DNA of 8,186 nt from a virus (lineage: Monodnaviria > Loebvirae > Hofneiviricota > Faserviricetes > Tubulavirales > Inoviridae). Below are positions 1 to 8,185 of this stretch, piece by piece; positions within the stretch are counted from its first letter, which is position 1; each line of letters starts with the position of its first letter. The stretch lies in IMG/VR virus record IMGVR_UViG_2537561932_000001; one strand, written 5' to 3'. The notes under the pieces were generated by a model. That model had not been told where the DNA came from and searched no databases. It saw only the letters and a program-made list of their open reading frames with translations. A program made the translations under genes and the position numbers.

Positions 1-13
1 CATTATGCGCACT
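1..13 (-). other. dif: Partial dif-like XerC/XerD recombination site, truncated by the window edge
   Basis: Reverse complement of 1..13 is AGTGCGCATAATG, matching 12 of 13 positions of the E. coli dif XerC arm plus the first two central bases (GGTGCGCATAA-TG). The rest of the site would lie upstream of position 1. Confidence 0.5.
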
Positions 14-320
14 GGCGTTGTGGTAGCTGAATTAAGGTGTCCGTGTGGGTACACAAACCCGGGAGTAAAAAAAGAAAACGCCTTATAACCTGGGAAAGTT
101 ATAAAGCGTCCCGGAAAATCCAGAAATGGATACAATGAAATATCCGTCTCAGTCAACGTAATTTACGTCTCAATCAACGTGATATACGGCCTTAACTGAC
201 ATTATGTGTCTACTACCTACTCACCCTCACATAGATGAGCAGCAAGACTATAACAAGTAAACATTACGGCGGATAACACCTGCAGACCTCTTGTTGAAAA
301 TTCCGGCTCAAAAGACGGCC
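11..320. repeat. Tandem direct repeat, copy A (about 310 bp, non-coding)
   Basis: 11..120 aligns with 321..427 at roughly 80 percent identity (ctggcgttgtg..gctgaatt..gtgtgggtacac; gtaaaaaaagaaaacgcc; taacctgggaaagttataa). The 3-prime ends also align (ttgaaaattccggctcaaaagacggcc). The middle is more diverged. No ORF of 60 aa or more. Confidence 0.8.
83..104. other. Conserved hairpin in repeat copy A (7-bp stem, 8-nt loop CTGGGAAA)
   Basis: TTATAAC (83..89) pairs with GTTATAA (98..104). The same loop and stem recur in copy B. Confidence 0.5.
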
Positions 321-388
321 TCTGGCGTTGTGATGGCTGAATTGAGATGTTCGTGTGGGTACACCGGGAAGTAAAAAAGAAAACGCCC

Positions 389-408
389 TATAACCTGGGA
401 AAGTTATA
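389..408. other. Conserved hairpin in repeat copy B (6-bp stem, 8-nt loop CTGGGAAA)
   Basis: TATAAC (389..394) pairs with GTTATA (403..408); loop is 395..402. Conservation across diverged copies suggests a functional structure. Confidence 0.5.
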
Positions 409-503
409 AGGCGCACTGGAAAATCCAGGTAATTATGGGATGTACGCGTCTAAACCAACGTTATGTCCGCCTCAGTATGTGCCAGTCCACTGCCACATAA
501 CAG

Positions 504-531
504 AGTGCGCAAATTGTAACGAGTAAAACAT
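504..531 (+). other. Degenerate dif-like motif with a conserved XerC-arm-like half (candidate attP component)
   Basis: AGTGCGCAAATTGTAACGAGTAAAACAT: the first 7 to 8 bases match the XerC arm of dif (GTGCGCA) and the centre is TGTA-like, but the XerD arm is not conserved. It lies in inverted orientation relative to the site at 1..13. Confidence 0.25.
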
Positions 532-589
532 TATCGCCGATAACACATCAGGACCTCTGTTTGAAAATTCCGGCTCAAAAAGACGGCCT

Positions 590-631
590 GTCAGTCATCA
601 ATTCCATCGAACGGCTTCATCAATGACTGTC
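590..631. other. Imperfect inverted repeat in the intergenic region downstream of the secretin gene
   Basis: CAGTCAT (592..598) pairs with ATGACTG (623..629), with a 24-nt loop. Confidence 0.35.
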
Positions 632-663
632 CGACTCCCGTCTTGCGCCGCTCGTCTCGCTGG

Positions 664-689
664 CTGCCCGCTAAAAGGCGGTCTGGCAG
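664..689. other. GC-rich bulged hairpin in the intergenic region
   Basis: CTGCC (664..668) pairs with GGCAG (685..689); inner CGC (669..671) pairs with GCG (678..680) around loop TAAAAG. Confidence 0.35.
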
Positions 690-811
690 GCGGCGCGTTG
701 CGCTGTTTCCTGCTGCTCTGTCATCTCTCCCCGGTTTCGGCGGGCTGACATCTGCGTCACATGAAACTTCATCATGCCGCCTTACATGTCCTGACGGACA
801 TCATCACACAC

Positions 812-2032
812 TCAGACCCGCCGGGCCTGAAGAACGACGATGATATCGGTTTTCGCACGTTCATCAGAGTCTGAACCAAACACATCCGGCAGAAATGAAA
901 GCCCTGTCCGCGCCTTTGATGTCTTGTTCTCCGCCAGTCCGCCCAGCACAATGATATCACCGTCATTCAGACTCACCGACGTGGACACCTCGCGCTTTAT
1001 CAGCGTTGGCGTGTTATTCACCCCCGTATCCGTTTTTGCAAAGTTACTCAGCTGCTGAACGATATCCAGACCTATCACATCCTGCGTCACGGTGGGTTTT
1101 ACCCGAAAAATAGCCCCGCTGCTGCGGTATTCCACGGACTGCACCGGAACCTTATCCTGCCATGACACTGATGACAGAACCGGCACATCAGACCCCACGC
1201 TGAAAACCGCCTCCTTACCGGAGATAACGCGCAGACGTGGCGAACTGACCACCTGAAAACGGCTGTCGGTCCTGAATAACTCATACATTGCATCAACAGA
1301 CCCCGTGCTGAGGCGAATAAAGTTATCCAGCCCCGATGCGCTGCTCATGGTGATACTGAAACGACCGGATAAAAGCTCTGCGGCCAGCGCCAGACCTGAA
1401 CCGTTACGCTCACTGGTCTGGACCTCAAACACATACCCGGCAACCGAAACCTCCTGTGCCCTGACGTCAATCTGCGGCAGAAGCTGCCGGACAAGCTCAA
1501 CTTCCCGGGCCGTTCCCCGGAACACAAACACATCCCCGGATGCACTGATGAACCGGGTACCACTGCTGACCGCCTGCCATGTCTGCTCACCGTTTGCCCC
1601 CTGAACCGGCTGTTGTGCGGCCGGAAGCTGACCCAGACCGGAAAGCGCCTGATGCAGATACTCCACTGTCCGGTAACGGGGCGTGTAAACAAGGGATTTC
1701 AGCGGCTCCTCTGGTGCGGCAGGTGTATGACTGTAAATATAATCAACGCCCTTTTTACGGCTTATCCTGATATTCATATTACCGAGATAACGGGTAATAA
1801 ATTCCCGTTCATCGATATCCGGTGAAATATGCAGCGTGACGGCCCGCGGGTCATTGACCAGTTCAGGGGCCAGCATGAACGGTGTTTTCAGGACTTCCGT
1901 CCAGAGCAGCGTCACCGCATCAGGCAGGCTCATGCGGTTAATATCCAGTTCCGTCCCGGCTGAAAACGACGGCAGCGGGAATAACAGCGCCATTGCAGGC
2001 AGCACCGGGAGAAGTAATTTTCTGATATTCAT
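812..2032 (-). CDS. gIV: Secretin pIV (outer-membrane export channel for virion extrusion), 406 aa
   Basis: N-terminal signal peptide (MNIRKLLLPVLPAMALLFPLPSFSA). C-terminal region DGDIIVLGGLAENKTSKARTGLSFLPDVFGSDSDERAKTDIIVVLQA aligns by eye with the M13 pIV C-terminus (LLLGGLTDYKNTSQDSGVPFLSKIPLIGLLF..STLYVLVKA). Last gene of the Ff-order operon. RBS AGGGA about 8 nt upstream. Confidence 0.9.
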   Translation of the reverse strand: MNIRKLLLPVLPAMALLFPLPSFSAGTELDINRMSLPDAVTLLWTEVLKTPFMLAPELVNDPRAVTLHISPDIDEREFITRYLGNMNIRISRKKGVDYIYSHTPAAPEEPLKSLVYTPRYRTVEYLHQALSGLGQLPAAQQPVQGANGEQTWQAVSSGTRFISASGDVFVFRGTAREVELVRQLLPQIDVRAQEVSVAGYVFEVQTSERNGSGLALAAELLSGRFSITMSSASGLDNFIRLSTGSVDAMYELFRTDSRFQVVSSPRLRVISGKEAVFSVGSDVPVLSSVSWQDKVPVQSVEYRSSGAIFRVKPTVTQDVIGLDIVQQLSNFAKTDTGVNNTPTLIKREVSTSVSLNDGDIIVLGGLAENKTSKARTGLSFLPDVFGSDSDERAKTDIIVVLQARRV

Positions 2033-2041
2033 ATTCTGTCC

Positions 2042-3298
2042 CTATGGTGTGGTGAGAGAAACGGACATCCCCCCGGCACCGCTGCCGGACGAACGCGACG
2101 GGGAAGGTTCACTGCCTGACCCGCTGTGAAACGTGATGTGTTCGCCATCCAGTTCCAGTACAGTAAGCAGCCCTTCATACGGCAGTTCACTGCGCACAAG
2201 CCGCGTGACGTTGCTGTTACTGCGCAGAATAAAAACCCCCTGCCCGTTACCGTCACGCATATGACCGGAAAGCCGCCAGACACGGGAAAGCGGCAGTTCT
2301 GCCGGAGATGCGACCTGTGGTACAGGCGGCGCTTTTTCAGTGGTGATTACCTGTGGTGGTGCCTGCATGACCGTTGCAGCCGGCTCATCAGGTGTGCCGG
2401 AGAAAAAATCCAGCACAAGACGTCCCCAGAACCAGAAAAACAGGCCACCCACCACAACGGACAACAGTTTTTTACGGCGCGCCTGTTGCTGCTCCTTTCG
2501 TTCCTCTGCCGTGAAGGTCTGCAAATCCCCTTTCTCCTGCCGCTCACGCAGCCGCCGGAACTGCCGGAGGGTTCTGCCGGGCAACAGGGAATACATGGCG
2601 CGCATATCACAGACCCGCTGATGCTCACCCGTTCCGAGCAGTTCCATTCCGTCATCAAATACCATGTTTGTCGGATGGATACCGTAAAAGGACGGCGCAT
2701 AAAAAACGCGGGATTCATTGGGACGGGAATTCGCCCGGGGAACACCGATATAAATTTTTGCCGAAATCAGGTGCGGCAGAAGCCCTTTCCGGCTGCCCGT
2801 ATCGCCAAACTTATCCGGCATGCAGAGTTCCAGAATATCGGACACGACCGGGACACGAATACGATCAAGACGACGGCAGCGGACAATCAGCTCACCCGTG
2901 GATTTAAATATTTTGCTGTCAACGGCGGATTCATCCTGCACCTGAATATAAACATCCCAGCCCAGTTTCCCGGACTGTACAAACCATTTGTAATATTCCA
3001 GGTATTCCCGGCCGGAAGATGTGCCGTTAAGCCATGTTCCGACCTCATCCAGAAATAACGCACCAAACCGCTCCTTCTCATTTTCATCACAACCACGCCC
3101 CAGCGCCCAGAAATCTTCAGGACGAGGACGGGCCGGAAGCACGGTCAACGGATGCGATGAAGCCGGGTCCATTTTTTCAGTATCAAGCGGGTAATTTGCC
3201 GCAATTCTGTGTCCGCGACGGTAAAACTGTTTTGCCACCATGGAGCAGAACAGCCCCTTCCCGTTGCGCATTTTTCCTGTCACCCAGTAAACAGCCAT
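2042..3298 (-). CDS. gI: Zot-like assembly NTPase pI (inner-membrane morphogenesis protein), 418 aa
   Basis: N-terminus MAVYWVTGKMRNGKG matches M13 pI MAVYFVTGKLGSGKT (P-loop). Further matches: LFLDEVGTWLN vs LVLDECGTWFN, KLGWDVYIQVQD vs KLGWDIIFLVQD, IVRCRRLDRIRVP vs VVYCRRLDRITLP. Central hydrophobic segment (VVGGLFFWFWGRLVL). RBS GGGGTG upstream. Confidence 0.92.
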   Translation of the reverse strand: MAVYWVTGKMRNGKGLFCSMVAKQFYRRGHRIAANYPLDTEKMDPASSHPLTVLPARPRPEDFWALGRGCDENEKERFGALFLDEVGTWLNGTSSGREYLEYYKWFVQSGKLGWDVYIQVQDESAVDSKIFKSTGELIVRCRRLDRIRVPVVSDILELCMPDKFGDTGSRKGLLPHLISAKIYIGVPRANSRPNESRVFYAPSFYGIHPTNMVFDDGMELLGTGEHQRVCDMRAMYSLLPGRTLRQFRRLRERQEKGDLQTFTAEERKEQQQARRKKLLSVVVGGLFFWFWGRLVLDFFSGTPDEPAATVMQAPPQVITTEKAPPVPQVASPAELPLSRVWRLSGHMRDGNGQGVFILRSNSNVTRLVRSELPYEGLLTVLELDGEHITFHSGSGSEPSPSRSSGSGAGGMSVSLTTP

Positions 3299-3305
3299 AA
3301 CACCC

Positions 3306-3665
3306 CTACTTCATTAAACCCAGTGTCAGTTTTCCGAGAATGAAAGCCTTCACCCGGAAGGCAAAATACAGCGACCATGCGCCGGTAATAATATTCAGGC
3401 AGACCGGAAGGTTATCCGGAAACAGGCTGGACACGCTGATCCAGACCGGATGCGTGAATACCGGAGAGGTCAGCATCAGGGAAGAAAACTTTTCATTCAC
3501 GAAGGAAATAAAAACGCTGTAAAACCCATACCAGACCCCGACCGTGGTCAGTGCAATCACGGACTTGAGGAGAAAAAAACGCAGGAGGCACCGGAAAATA
3601 AACGGCACCAGAAATATCATCATATCCTTAAAAAAGACGGTCAGTCCCATAAAAACAGCTGGCAT
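3306..3665 (-). CDS. Minor coat protein pVI-like, 119 aa
   Basis: Strongly hydrophobic multi-helix protein starting MP, of pVI size, placed between pIII and pI as in Ff. Its start overlaps the pIII stop (TAAATATG). Confidence 0.7.
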   Translation of the reverse strand: MPAVFMGLTVFFKDMMIFLVPFIFRCLLRFFLLKSVIALTTVGVWYGFYSVFISFVNEKFSSLMLTSPVFTHPVWISVSSLFPDNLPVCLNIITGAWSLYFAFRVKAFILGKLTLGLMK

Positions 3666-3667
3666 AT

Positions 3668-4996
3668 TTACCTACCGGATAATGATTTATCAACCAGGAT
3701 GACTAATGACACTGCGGTGATGACATAAATAAAAAAGCGAATAACCTCCCGCAGATAACCGTCATAAATACGACAGACACCTTCCGTGGAGAGATTAAAG
3801 GGCATTTCCTCACCCCCGAAAGGCCGGAATGAAAAACTTAAATCCAGTGGCACACAGACATCCCTGTTATTGCCGAAGAAGCCCTGAGGAATAATGCCGG
3901 AAAAATTAAGCACAGGCACATAATCTTCAATCAGGGGAATAAGTTCCTGAATCCGGTCCTGTACGCCCTGCTCCACTGAACTTATACCGTTCTCAATAAT
4001 CCCCTGCATAGTGCTGTTAAACTGCGCCTGAGACGAAGAGTAGTTTTTATCCGGCTCTGTCAGTGCGCCAAATTTTTCATCAATGCTGTGTAAATATTTC
4101 ACCTGCCTTTCTGTCATATAATCCATGGTAACAAGGGTTTTATTCTGAAGTTCAATGTAGCTGCTATGAAAACTGTCAATTTTGTCTCCGATGGCAGGCA
4201 GTCCGGCATTCAGCAGATAATATATTTTTCTTCCCCACTCATCAGAAAGACCGTCATCCCCGTTTCCGGTGTTATTATCATTGCCGTCACTCCCGGTATT
4301 TCCACCACCGGAATTATTACCGCCATCGCTGCCGGAATTATTATCTTCACTACCGTTGTTATCTTCCTCATTACCGTTGTCAGGAACAATTTTCCCGTCC
4401 TCAATTTTATAACCCTCCCTTAAATAACAGGTGCTGTTATAAAGGTTCTGCCAGCCGGAACCGTTGGGAGTGCAGGAGTAATATTTTGCGTGAGCGCGCA
4501 ACTCAGATAAAGGCATAGTTTCCCGCGGGGGATAATATCCTGAAAATGAACCACAGATTAACAGCGGATTATTATCACACTCCTGCCTCCTCAGTGTATC
4601 CGCAAGTTCAAGCAAATAGACAGCAGAAACCTGACCGGATACAGCGTTATCATTATCATCACCGGAACTGTTGTCCCCGTTGCCGCCGGAACTGTTATCC
4701 CCGTCACCGCCATCACCATCCGAAGGCTCATAAGCTGCCACAGGGATCCAGTTAGTAGCGGCGACATCACCTGTTTCACTGCCAACAATCACACCTGTCG
4801 CCATATAAATACAGCCATCCACAACAGCATACCATGTATTATCACTGCGAAACGCCCCGGAAAGTGACCCCTGCAGCGCCGGACGGGAAATACAGGCCTC
4901 ATCAGACTCCGTTAAATTAAAAGGCGCAAATGTTCTTGTGAATGACTCAGCAGATGAAAAGAACGGAAGAAATAAAAGCAGAAATAACAGCCGCAT
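3668..4996 (-). CDS. gIII: Adsorption/minor coat protein pIII, 442 aa
   Basis: Signal peptide (MRLLFLLLFLPFFSSA). The N1-like segment CIYMATGVIVGSETGDV..WIPVAAYEP resembles M13 pIII CLWNATGVVVCTGDETQ..WVPIGLAIPE. Two Gly/Ser/Asn/Asp low-complexity linkers. C-terminal hydrophobic anchor (FFIYVITAVSLVILV). RBS GAGG 5 nt upstream. Confidence 0.88.
   Translation of the reverse strand: MRLLFLLLFLPFFSSAESFTRTFAPFNLTESDEACISRPALQGSLSGAFRSDNTWYAVVDGCIYMATGVIVGSETGDVAATNWIPVAAYEPSDGDGGDGDNSSGGNGDNSSGDDNDNAVSGQVSAVYLLELADTLRRQECDNNPLLICGSFSGYYPPRETMPLSELRAHAKYYSCTPNGSGWQNLYNSTCYLREGYKIEDGKIVPDNGNEEDNNGSEDNNSGSDGGNNSGGGNTGSDGNDNNTGNGDDGLSDEWGRKIYYLLNAGLPAIGDKIDSFHSSYIELQNKTLVTMDYMTERQVKYLHSIDEKFGALTEPDKNYSSSQAQFNSTMQGIIENGISSVEQGVQDRIQELIPLIEDYVPVLNFSGIIPQGFFGNNRDVCVPLDLSFSFRPFGGEEMPFNLSTEGVCRIYDGYLREVIRFFIYVITAVSLVILVDKSLSGR
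4662..4709. repeat. Two tandem 24-bp near-identical units inside the first pIII linker
   Basis: CCGGAACTGTTGTCCCCGTTGCCG followed by CCGGAACTGTTATCCCCGTCACCG, encoding the repeated GDNSSG linker. Confidence 0.7.
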
Positions 4997-5051: not shown

Positions 5052-5327
5052 TCAGGAAGATGCCATTCTGAAGAGGGATTTAACTACGCGGAAACCAATC
5101 ATTAAAGAAACGCCAAAGCCCAGTAAAAGAAATGCTGCGGTACCCACCACGCCCAGCGTTGACAAAATGGAGTTCACCACCGGGTCAATCATATCCTGGT
5201 TGATAACTGCCTGTCCGGGGGTATAACTCACCCCTTCAGCCAGAACAGGACCGGACGCCAGCATCAGGGAAGATGCAATGACCAGAGGTTTTTTTACGAA
5301 CGTAACTGCTTTTTCACGAACAGACAT
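5052..5327 (-). CDS. Major coat protein pVIII precursor, 91 aa (start moved to internal ATG with RBS)
   Basis: ATG at 5327..5325 preceded by GGAG with a 9-nt spacer. Predicted signal peptide MSVREKAVTFVKKPLVIASSLMLASGPVLA with cleavage before EG. Mature protein has an acidic/polar N-terminus, one hydrophobic helix (LGVVGTAAFLLLGFGVSLMIGF) and a basic C-terminus (RVVKSLFR). Sits in the gene VIII position. Confidence 0.75.
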   Translation of the reverse strand: MSVREKAVTFVKKPLVIASSLMLASGPVLAEGVSYTPGQAVINQDMIDPVVNSILSTLGVVGTAAFLLLGFGVSLMIGFRVVKSLFRMASS

Positions 5328-5347
5328 AATATATAACTCCTGTATTA

Positions 5348-5506
5348 TTACAAAAAAGATGAAAAAAGTGTTTTCGTCAGGGAAAACACATACCCGAAGC
5401 CAAAACCGGCAAGCCAGCTGATGGCCCATATACCAAAAAGCGCAACAAGCGGAGGATAAGAACCCACGCCGGATATTGTCACAAGAAAATTTGTCTCAGA
5501 AAGCAT
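5348..5506 (-). CDS. Small hydrophobic protein in the pIX position, 52 aa (absent from the ORF track)
   Basis: Hand-translated: MLSETNFLVTISGVGSYPPLVALFGIWAISWLAGFGFGYVFSLTKTLFSSFL. Its ATG lies 2 nt after the pVII stop (TAATCATG), and its stop is followed by the pVIII RBS. Longer than M13 pIX (32 aa). Confidence 0.5.
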   Translation of the reverse strand: MLSETNFLVTISGVGSYPPLVALFGIWAISWLAGFGFGYVFSLTKTLFSSFL

Positions 5507-5620: not shown

Positions 5621-7496
<1,876 letters not shown>

Positions 7497-7709
7497 ATGA
7501 AAAAAGAAACAAAGCGCGGAGACACAACCGTAAGGATTAACGAAAACAGAAAACTGGAGCTAAAACGAAGAGTGCTGGAAATCGGTAATAAAACAGGTGA
7601 GCTACTAAAACCATCAGAGATAGTAAACCACTTAATAGACAACTACTTAGATGATGCGGTGAAAGATCTAATAAGCAAAGAAGAACTTAAGAAAAAAAAG
7701 GCAATGTGA
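7497..7709 (+). CDS. Putative ribbon-helix-helix transcriptional regulator (phage repressor candidate), 70 aa
   Basis: Divergent from the Rep operon, as repressors are in other filamentous phages. RBS GAGG 8 nt before ATG 7497 (the track starts at TTG 7494). The pattern TTVRINE, then NRKLELKRRVLEIG, then a GNKTGE turn, then LLKPSEIVNHLIDNYL is compatible with strand-helix-helix. Lysine-rich tail. Confidence 0.5.
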   Translation: MKKETKRGDTTVRINENRKLELKRRVLEIGNKTGELLKPSEIVNHLIDNYLDDAVKDLISKEELKKKKAM

Positions 7710-7767
7710 TCCCTTTTCCTGCATTCAGCAGACTACCCGCGAAGGATCGAAAGGATACGGTTTAACT

Positions 7768-7785
7768 GGAAACCCTTGAGTTTCC
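7768..7785 (+). other. Small hairpin (6-bp stem GGAAAC/GTTTCC, loop CCTTGA)
   Basis: Inverted repeat read directly from the sequence. Confidence 0.3.
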
Positions 7786-7795
7786 GTTGACTCTA

Positions 7796-7822
7796 CCCCC
7801 GTGTTACAAGACGGGGGTTTTT
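7796..7822 (+). terminator. Rho-independent terminator downstream of the regulator gene
   Basis: CCCCCGT (7796..7802) pairs with ACGGGGG (7811..7817), loop GTTACAAG, followed by TTTTT (7818..7822). Confidence 0.6.
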
Positions 7823-8011
7823 CTCCCGGCCTGTAACACATCGCTCTCTGATGTTAATGCAGGCGCTCCGCTCCTCGCAGGTTGTCGTTGTCGGCGTCCT
7901 CCTCCCGTCGTCCTTCTTCGCCTCCAACCTGCTGCGGTGCGGTACGACTGGATTAAGGGCGATTCAACTTCGTTACATGGACATTTAAAAAACAAAAGCA
8001 TGAGGGGAAGA

Positions 8012-8185
8012 ATGAACAACTGGAGTGAGATCATATTAGACCTGCTGATGAAGCACATAATAGGTGGCGCTGCGATTGGCGTGGCTATCCTGTTGTTTGC
8101 CGGAGTGATTTTTCCTGTTGCGCTGAAGATAAGGAAGCTCACTGGCAGGAAAAAACAGCGAATAAAACAGAAACTCATCAGTTAA
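8012..8185 (+). CDS. Hypothetical small single-pass membrane protein, 57 aa
   Basis: ATG 8012 preceded by GAGGGG with a 6-nt spacer. MNNWSEIILDLLMKHIIGGAAIGVAILLFAGVIFPVALKIRKLTGRKKQRIKQKLIS: one hydrophobic helix and a strongly basic C-terminal tail. The upstream in-frame extension to 7787 lacks an RBS and crosses the terminator hairpin. Confidence 0.5.
   Translation: MNNWSEIILDLLMKHIIGGAAIGVAILLFAGVIFPVALKIRKLTGRKKQRIKQKLIS

Follow-up and report, generated by a model that had tools for sequence, protein, structure and literature searches.

The sequence analyzed here, referred to as the window, is a stretch of 8,186 nucleotides that carries the core gene set of the Inoviridae, namely a rolling-circle Rep, a pIII-like protein, a pI/Zot protein and a pIV secretin (optional in this family), all on one strand of a phage genome that measures 8,270 nt by the junction analysis described below and thus falls within the family's range of about 6-9 kb. 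The features of the window and of the attachment region beyond its right end are collected in Table 1. We scanned 20 ORFs of the window, including all ORFs of at least 88 aa, against Pfam, and ten of these also against PHROGs and NCBIfam. The functions matched were secretin, Zot/pI, Phage_Coat_A and Rep_trans; the Pfam scan of the 20 ORFs returned no recombinase, and the ten ORFs searched further gave inovirus functions only and likewise no recombinase, consistent with a preliminary description of this DNA, which had reported that the window is devoid of a tyrosine or serine recombinase ORF. No deposited phage genome was matched in a megablast search with the complete window, and relatives among phages at the protein level are only distant (32% identity for M13 pI and 33% for CTXphi RstA, the latter over 92% of the protein and the best phage relative of Rep). 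The position downstream of Rep that is taken in the window by a 113-aa ORF holds an annotated single-stranded DNA-binding protein in related prophages.

Several parts of the window do not encode recognizable proteins. The intergenic units at its left end are direct repeats (D1-D3, 84-88% identical), and their number varies between strains, with one in RM14721, two in the window and three in Sx181 (Sx181-0-1). An Rfam scan of the window matched no family, leaving the intergenic units without an assignment, and a sigma-70 promoter scan of positions 1-850 gave no promoter; the units could serve in replication origin function or in packaging, or could give rise to small transcripts. We also considered unit 1 (positions 12-321) as a separately integrated element and rejected this because no dif-like site or hairpin lies between units 1 and 2. 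The noncoding stretch at 7730-7948 is 84-88% identical to plasmids of 2.0-2.7 kb from E. coli, E. albertii, Salmonella and Citrobacter, one of which, NZ_AP019859.1, was examined and encodes a "protein rep"; judged from this similarity, the stretch may be a replication-origin element common to the phage and the plasmids. At the end of the regulatory module, a 57-aa ORF (8012-8185) with no family match adjoins the phage attachment site and is kept in all relatives, even in those with different replication modules.

Table 1. Coordinates and characteristics of the features in the window, in the attachment region to its right and in the related ~464-nt modules
Feature	Position	Strand	Remarks
First two central-region bases, TG	1-2	-	XerC crossover point between positions 2 and 3
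Phage-derived XerC-binding arm	3-13	-	AGTGCGCATAA on the minus strand; A at position 1
Intergenic repeat unit 1	12-321	-	Adjoins the XerC arm; minus-strand intrinsic terminator 112-75
Intergenic repeat unit 2	322-592	-	Minus-strand intrinsic terminator 414-383
Secretin, counterpart of M13 protein IV	812-2032	-	Pfam Secretin 1.8e-25; PHROG 1012 "assembly (protein IV of M13)" 2.5e-128
Zot/protein I-like assembly ATPase	2042-3298	-	Pfam Zot 1.2e-09; PHROG 1675/197; 32% identical to the M13 gene I product
Putative small virion/assembly protein, protein VI position	3306-3665	-	PHROG 27651; role proposed from gene order only
Protein III-like receptor-binding minor coat protein	3668-4996	-	Pfam Phage_Coat_A 2.4e-10; PHROG 8482 "attachment protein"
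Two small ORFs in coat-protein position	5052-5506 (5052-5327/5429; 5348-5506)	-	CDS in E24377A; PHROG 17608; putative role, from position
113-aa ORF in ssDNA-binding (RstB/protein V) position, downstream of Rep	5621-5962	-	PHROG 14411; putative role
Rep_trans rolling-circle initiator, RstA-like	5966-7192	-	Pfam Rep_trans 1.5e-21; PHROG 453
71-aa ORF divergent from Rep, candidate regulator	7494-7709	+	PHROG 2503; putative role, from position
Noncoding stretch, possible origin element	7730-7948		Also present in small plasmids
57-aa hydrophobic ORF	8012-8185	+	MNNWSEIILDLLMKHIIGGAAIGVAILLFAGVIFPVALKIRKLTGRKKQRIKQKLIS; WP_001409659.1; stops 4 nt before the hairpin
attP hairpin	8190-8283 (window-equivalent); L001 16190-16283		Outside the window
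Site A		+	AGTGCGCACAA-TGACG-TTATGTGTAAA; 5-nt spacer; starts four bases past the right end of the window
Site B, phage form			AGTGCGCATAA-TGTGTTACACG-TTATGTTGAAA; inverted relative to site A; 11-nt spacer
Site B at the hipA-side junction of E24377A			GGTGCGCATAA-TGTGTTACACG-TTATGTTGAAA; ~35 nt beyond site A
98-nt attP(+) sequence, predicted to fold			CCAGTGCGCATAATGTGTTACACG...CATTGTGCGCACTGG
Site A' of the ~464-nt module			AATGCGCACAA-GAGCG-TTATGTGTAAA
Site B' of the ~464-nt module			AGTGCGCATAA-GACATATGCCG-TTATGTTGAAT

The E. coli dif site, read from the unoccupied loci of K-12 DH1 and FORC_042, is GGTGCGCATAA-TGTATA-TTATGTTAAAT. The window begins with CATTATGCGCACT, whose reverse complement AGTGCGCATAATG differs from positions 1-13 of dif only in having A in place of G at position 1 of the XerC arm (12 of 13 bases identical). 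The preliminary description, which had read these bases as the reverse-complemented XerC arm plus the start of the central region with one mismatch, was therefore accurate on this point. The chance expectation for a 13-mer that departs from dif at no more than one base is 0.02 per window; one was seen in 3 of 200 shuffled sequences, and no second match of this type occurs elsewhere in the window.

We next determined where the window is found among complete genomes. At least 80% of its length was present in 12 of 5,426 complete E. coli genomes, with copies that are 100% identical in four enterotoxigenic (ETEC) strains (503440, 503025, 504211 and 503829). The copy in E24377A differs by 1 nt, and given this difference and the four identical copies elsewhere, the window was not assigned to E24377A. 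E24377A contains a solitary copy between ydeQRS/fimA (usher genes) and hipAB, and here the 15 nt upstream, ATTTAACATAATATA, combine with window positions 1-13 into a site that matches dif at 27 of 28 positions (L001 7986-8013), a match obtained in none of 100 shuffles. Similarly, the identical copy in 503440, a strain with two copies, is the dif-proximal one, and the same 15 nt, ATTTAACATAATATA, again yield 27 of 28 dif positions. In K-12 DH1 and FORC_042, which have no prophage at this locus, a perfect and unoccupied dif lies between identical flanks. Thus, the prediction that the upstream flank would complete a 28-bp dif, and that prophage-free genomes would have an intact dif at the locus, was borne out for these strains.

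In tandem arrays, however, the start of the window is a phage-phage junction, and the half-dif reading does not hold there. In 503025, 504211, 503829 and TW10573, the matching copy is an internal or the last copy of the array, the sequence leading up to window position 1 ends in TTTCAACATAACGTGTAACA, and the 13-mer completes a 33-nt attP belonging to the phage (site B with its 11-nt spacer) rather than a 28-nt dif. Three of the four identical placements thus complete attP, and only that in 503440 completes dif. The placement of the window is therefore not unique among array positions. Whichever copy is taken, positions 3-13 are the phage XerC arm and the array sits at dif, and the interpretation given below stands.

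The arrays also define the ends of the phage. In the 503025 array of five tandem copies, one full dif is present at the secretin-side end, the four internal junctions consist of an A-type arm followed by TGTGTTACACG and TTATGTTGAAA, and one terminal junction is of the G type; the same junction pattern was found in the array of UTME-13. The copies in 503025 are spaced at 8262-8270 nt, which matches the 8,270 nt between the crossover points in E24377A. Junction positions and array spacing together give a phage genome of 8,270 nt, of which the window is without the last 86 nt. As a separate observation at this locus, hipA is cut to an N-terminal fragment beside the prophage or dif in E24377A (L001 16373-16633), FORC_042, 503025 and 504211 and is intact in K-12, UTI89, Sx181 and RM14721; because FORC_042 has no prophage, the truncation is not tied to the presence of the phage.

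The base at position 1 of the XerC arm distinguishes phage arms (A) from chromosomal arms (G) in every lysogen and array examined. In E24377A, Sx181 and RM14721, the A-type arm is in the regenerated dif and the G-type, chromosomal arm is on site B. Read from these junctions, the 13-mer at the start of the window is phage DNA and not host DNA, and the "mismatched" A marks the phage-borne XerC arm. Base-by-base comparison of occupied and unoccupied loci mapped the insertion to the XerC cut with single-nucleotide precision, and the junction polymorphisms place the crossover between position 1 of the arm and position 4 of the spacer, where XerC cuts. The regenerated dif of the window's lineage retains the chromosomal TGTATA center in every genome examined. 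These results bear directly on the possibility that insertion did not depend on Xer at all, the prophage having been placed beside dif by an integrase from elsewhere or by homologous recombination, with the bases at the window start being host dif. The one argument in its favor is that dif is host sequence. We regard this explanation as scarcely credible, given the base-exact insertion at the XerC cut, the phage-specific A in the arm at the window start and the XerC/XerD sites that the phage itself carries (see below). Further, the 8-kb flanks on each side of the E24377A prophage contain no integrase and no tRNA, so that an integrase just outside the window with a tRNA or other attachment site, which would have spoken against the preliminary description, was not found, and the same architecture recurs across independent strains and species. 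Exact location at dif, phage-borne XerC/XerD sites and the lack of an integrase all support the earlier reading of Xer-dependent integration.

The second attachment site, which had been predicted at the other end of the prophage, lies 4-97 nt to the right of the window. It is not a simple copy of dif but an inverted pair of dif-like sites, A and B, with spacers of 5 and 11 nt that surround a GC-rich stem-loop and form a hairpin. With such spacers, each site is unsuitable as a duplex substrate. In silico DNA folding of the attP single strand gave a long stem with an asymmetric central bulge at -37.5 kcal/mol (z = -8.9), and the version of attP found at phage-phage junctions folded at -43.9 kcal/mol (z = -11.1). 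In the predicted fold, the stem provides XerC and XerD duplexes around the bulged center. An alignment of six hairpin variants over 40 pairs showed that 94% of cells pair, and nine pairs were changed on both sides, compared with zero to three when the partners were slid. Folding on either strand was about equal (-37.5 versus -36.0 kcal/mol); because an inverted repeat folds similarly on both strands, folding energy cannot pick the strand.

Within site B, the XerC arm is perfect or near perfect, the XerD arm matches at 9 of 11 positions and TGT lies beside the XerC cut. Homology between the phage site and dif is limited to the XerC side, where the top-strand centers read TGT-GTT... and TGT-ATA, respectively; on the XerD side, the bottom strands (CGT versus TAT) have nothing in common. 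Homology on the XerC side only is the pattern that decides CTXphi integration according to a review (PMC4246890), and the CTXphi sites attP1 and attP2, with spacers of 12 bp and 5-7 bp, fold in the (+) strand (PMC4246890, PMC3442271). The inverted-pair hairpin therefore points to single-stranded integration of the CTXphi type rather than to a plain exchange between two dif sites.

We considered whether site B alone could serve as attP in the double-stranded replicative form, as in VGJphi, with XerC exchange, resolution by replication and a prophage that would be excisable through two usable flanking sites. The near-perfect XerC arm, the 9/11 XerD arm and the TGT at the XerC cut are what such a site needs, and the junction polymorphism taken alone fixes a crossover on the XerC side that this route would also give. 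The spacer of site B, however, is 11 nt long, whereas 6-7 nt are needed, so that XerC and XerD would be misplaced on the duplex, an argument made from the spacer of CTXphi attP1 in the review as well (PMC4246890). In addition, an inverted partner site that is conserved and shows compensatory changes would be purposeless, and the right-hand junction keeps the 11-nt spacer and is not a usable dif-like site. On this evidence, a VGJphi-type route is improbable.

A route of the TLCphi/GGI type, in which XerD exchanges first on double-stranded DNA upon a trigger by XafT or FtsK and XerC finishes the reaction, appears even less probable. TLCphi is known to alter dif (PMC6744903), and the GACATA dif center of one related lysogen, E. 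coli 16F5M1D1 (see below), could have come from two-strand exchange followed by heteroduplex segregation. In the window, however, the ORF scans found no DUF3653/XafT-like protein; the XerD arm is well conserved (9/11) and not degenerate, the XerD side of the center is without homology, and the regenerated dif in the window's lineage is always TGTATA in the genomes examined.

As a positive control, we applied the same scan to the CTXphi array GU942563.1, in which it recovered a site with a 12-nt spacer on the coding strand and an inverted site with a 7-nt spacer. In this array, the chromosomal arm AGTGCGCATTA is at the first, rstR-side junction, and the phage arm AGTGCGTATTA occurs both at internal junctions and, after zot, within the regenerated dif1. 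The phage site and dif1 have TGT in common. Like CTXphi, the phage described here is an integrase-less inovirus at dif with an inverted pair of dif-like sites that folds into a hairpin, TGT at the XerC cut in common with dif, the same junction layout, tandem arrays and an RstA-type Rep (33%). The spacers differ (12/7 nt in CTXphi versus 11/5 nt here) and are noncanonical in both. Unlike CTXphi, it has a different host and dif sequence, its inverted sites are ~35 nt apart rather than ~90 nt, it encodes its own secretin (none is annotated in the CTXphi array examined), it has no toxin genes and its structural genes are distantly Ff-like (32% identity of its pI to that of M13).

The coding strand of the phage, which is the minus strand of the window, is T-rich (29.5% T versus 22.6% A), and site B lies on that strand. 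Such a T-rich composition is typical of the packaged strand of inoviruses, as in the Ff phages. From gene orientation and base skew, the packaged (+) strand is thus probably the minus strand of the window. The prophage also has the orientation predicted for insertion of the coding strand. Taken together, the data make it very likely that the window represents one genome copy of an integrase-less filamentous phage lysogenized at dif by the CTXphi-type route. On the packaged strand, site B and the complement of site A would fold into a hairpin whose stem would hold a duplex for XerC binding and another for XerD binding on the two sides of a bulged, asymmetric center. Host XerC would then exchange a single strand pair to join the hairpin to dif, presumably as the only catalyst of the reaction, with the TGT common to both centers stabilizing the exchange, and replication would turn the exchange intermediate into a prophage. 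The expected product has a chromosomal XerC arm joined to the phage spacer at the hipA-side (regulatory) end and, at the end after the secretin gene, a regenerated dif with the phage XerC arm, corresponding to window positions 1-13. Within the prophage, the hairpin would be masked in duplex DNA, and Xer-mediated excision is not expected. New phage genomes would instead be produced from tandem arrays through rolling-circle replication by the RstA-like Rep; the arrays themselves could alternatively have arisen via duplication instead of repeated integration. We predict that solitary copies, such as that of E24377A, are locked in and would not yield phage, and that arrays of two to five copies are productive. 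The GACATA center of 16F5M1D1 is not predicted by a pure XerC-only exchange, so that at least some relatives may employ, or undergo, another type of exchange.

A literature search returned no experimental study and no description of this phage, nor of any inovirus of E24377A or ETEC. Xer-dependent filamentous prophages at E. coli dif are already known, namely CUS-1, YpfPhi and UPphi901 (PMC4266046, PMC7307601). The CUS-1 prophage (E. coli O18:K1:H7) is found in UTI89 at the locus of the window's prophage and runs in the same direction. CUS-1 and YpfPhi, which are ~99% identical to each other over 7.1 kb (PMC4266046) and have already been classed as CTX type (PMC4246890, PMC4266046, PMC3442271), resemble the phage described here in their XerC/XerD arms, their 5/11-nt spacers and the GGCCGCTGCG stem extension, and the attP module of the window phage is 79% identical to that of CUS-1. 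The 11-nt spacer differs (TGTGTTACACG here versus TGTACGACTCG in CUS-1), as does Rep, which belongs to the II/X family in CUS-1 and to Rep_trans here. Identity with CUS-1 was rejected: outside the attP module, the two genomes show no DNA-level relationship, with only 88 nt of the secretin gene matching at 81%. When one genome of each species was scanned for the pattern, the same attP-type site was found in Y. pestis, where it presumably belongs to the YpfPhi prophage, and in Lelliottia, Phytobacter, Enterobacter, Erwinia and Kluyvera.

The UPphi901 group (Virus Evol 2020) comprises filamentous prophages of E. coli and other Enterobacterales that occur in E. coli as tandem repeats at dif, the similarity of the repeats to dif being limited to its first ~15 bases (PMC7307601). 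UPphi901 measures 7.56 kb and is related to I2-2/IKe. It was rejected as the phage of the window because the primer diagnostic for UPphi901 has no match there, and E24377A does not appear in the supplementary files of PMC7307601. The VGJphi-type and TLCphi-type IMEXs (integrative mobile elements exploiting Xer) likewise lack an integrase and depend on host XerCD at dif. VGJphi, however, recombines through one duplex site whose spacer is of normal length, which is not so in this phage, and TLCphi proceeds XerD-first with XafT and has a degenerate XerD arm (PMC4246890, PMC6744903), neither of which was found here.

The CTXphi hairpin mechanism is established, and the finding on this phage is correct but ordinary and will not surprise a specialist. 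It nevertheless fixes the exact ends (8,270 nt) and the likely integration mechanism of a prophage of enterotoxigenic and other E. coli. For annotation, the phage arm explains the one-base deviation of dif in lysogens, and half-dif matches within arrays are phage-phage junctions and not functional dif sites.

We also compared related prophages with the window (L005, L006, L007 and L026). In these relatives, the structural module, from the secretin to the coat proteins, is 95-99% identical, and the replication modules are of three kinds, encoding Rep_trans, a II/X-family Rep with a single-stranded DNA-binding protein, or a "replication endonuclease." The relatives with differing replication modules all keep the 57-aa ORF and the attP hairpin. 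The combination of three replication proteins with one structural module indicates that the family is mosaic and that the attP cassette travels with different backbones. The hairpin attP module known from CUS-1 and YpfPhi is thus a portable cassette, common to otherwise unrelated genomes with three types of replication protein. Different module versions lie next to each other within one array in UTME-13 and JNE112863.

Modules of ~464 nt, each containing its own hairpin attP and one intergenic unit, are present between prophage copies in UTME-13 (L007 2140-2705 and 10740-11305), UTAK-3, UTAK-18, JNE23-001 and JNE25-005. The hairpin of the module, with sites A' and B' (Table 1), folds in silico at -33.7 kcal/mol (z = -7.7). 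Its spacer begins with GAC and not with TGT, so that by the CTXphi rule no integration into a normal E. coli dif would be expected. The modules could be miniature satellites or captured remnants. In E. coli O8:H8 16F5M1D1 (NZ_AP019856.1, L026 935-962), the only full dif at the locus is AGTGCGCATAA-GACATA-TTATGTTAAAT; a GACATA center in place of TGTATA was found in 1 of 5,426 genomes, and this site adjoins a ~464-nt module. The altered center suggests that two-strand exchange or gene conversion has rewritten the host dif. That the modules are autonomous satellites whose own recombination rewrites the host dif from TGTATA to GACATA is a speculative proposal that we consider unlikely; if true, such rewriting would change which Xer-dependent phages can integrate later, and E. 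coli would have its own equivalent of the change that TLCphi makes to dif in Vibrio cholerae.

Degraded copies of the phage are also carried by plasmids. On the ~104-kb plasmid pUTME-13 (NZ_CP157094.1, L010 4486-5648), a truncated phage corresponding to window positions 366-1459 (97.5% identical) adjoins the dif-like sequence AGTGCGCATAA-CGTACA-TTATGTTAAAT, and the same arrangement is found on the plasmids of ~104 kb in UTAK-3 and UTAK-18. Integration into an Xer site on the plasmid may have left this copy behind, but it is too degraded to interpret. A deleted derivative of ~1.7 kb lies on the IncF conjugative plasmid of Sx181-0-1 (NZ_CP078136.1, L023 about 2040-3800); no clean dif-like junction is visible on its left side, and this derivative is likewise too degraded to interpret. 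The derivative keeps both phage ends, including the intergenic units, the small ORF and the hairpin, and the chromosome of Sx181-0-1 contains a full prophage as well.
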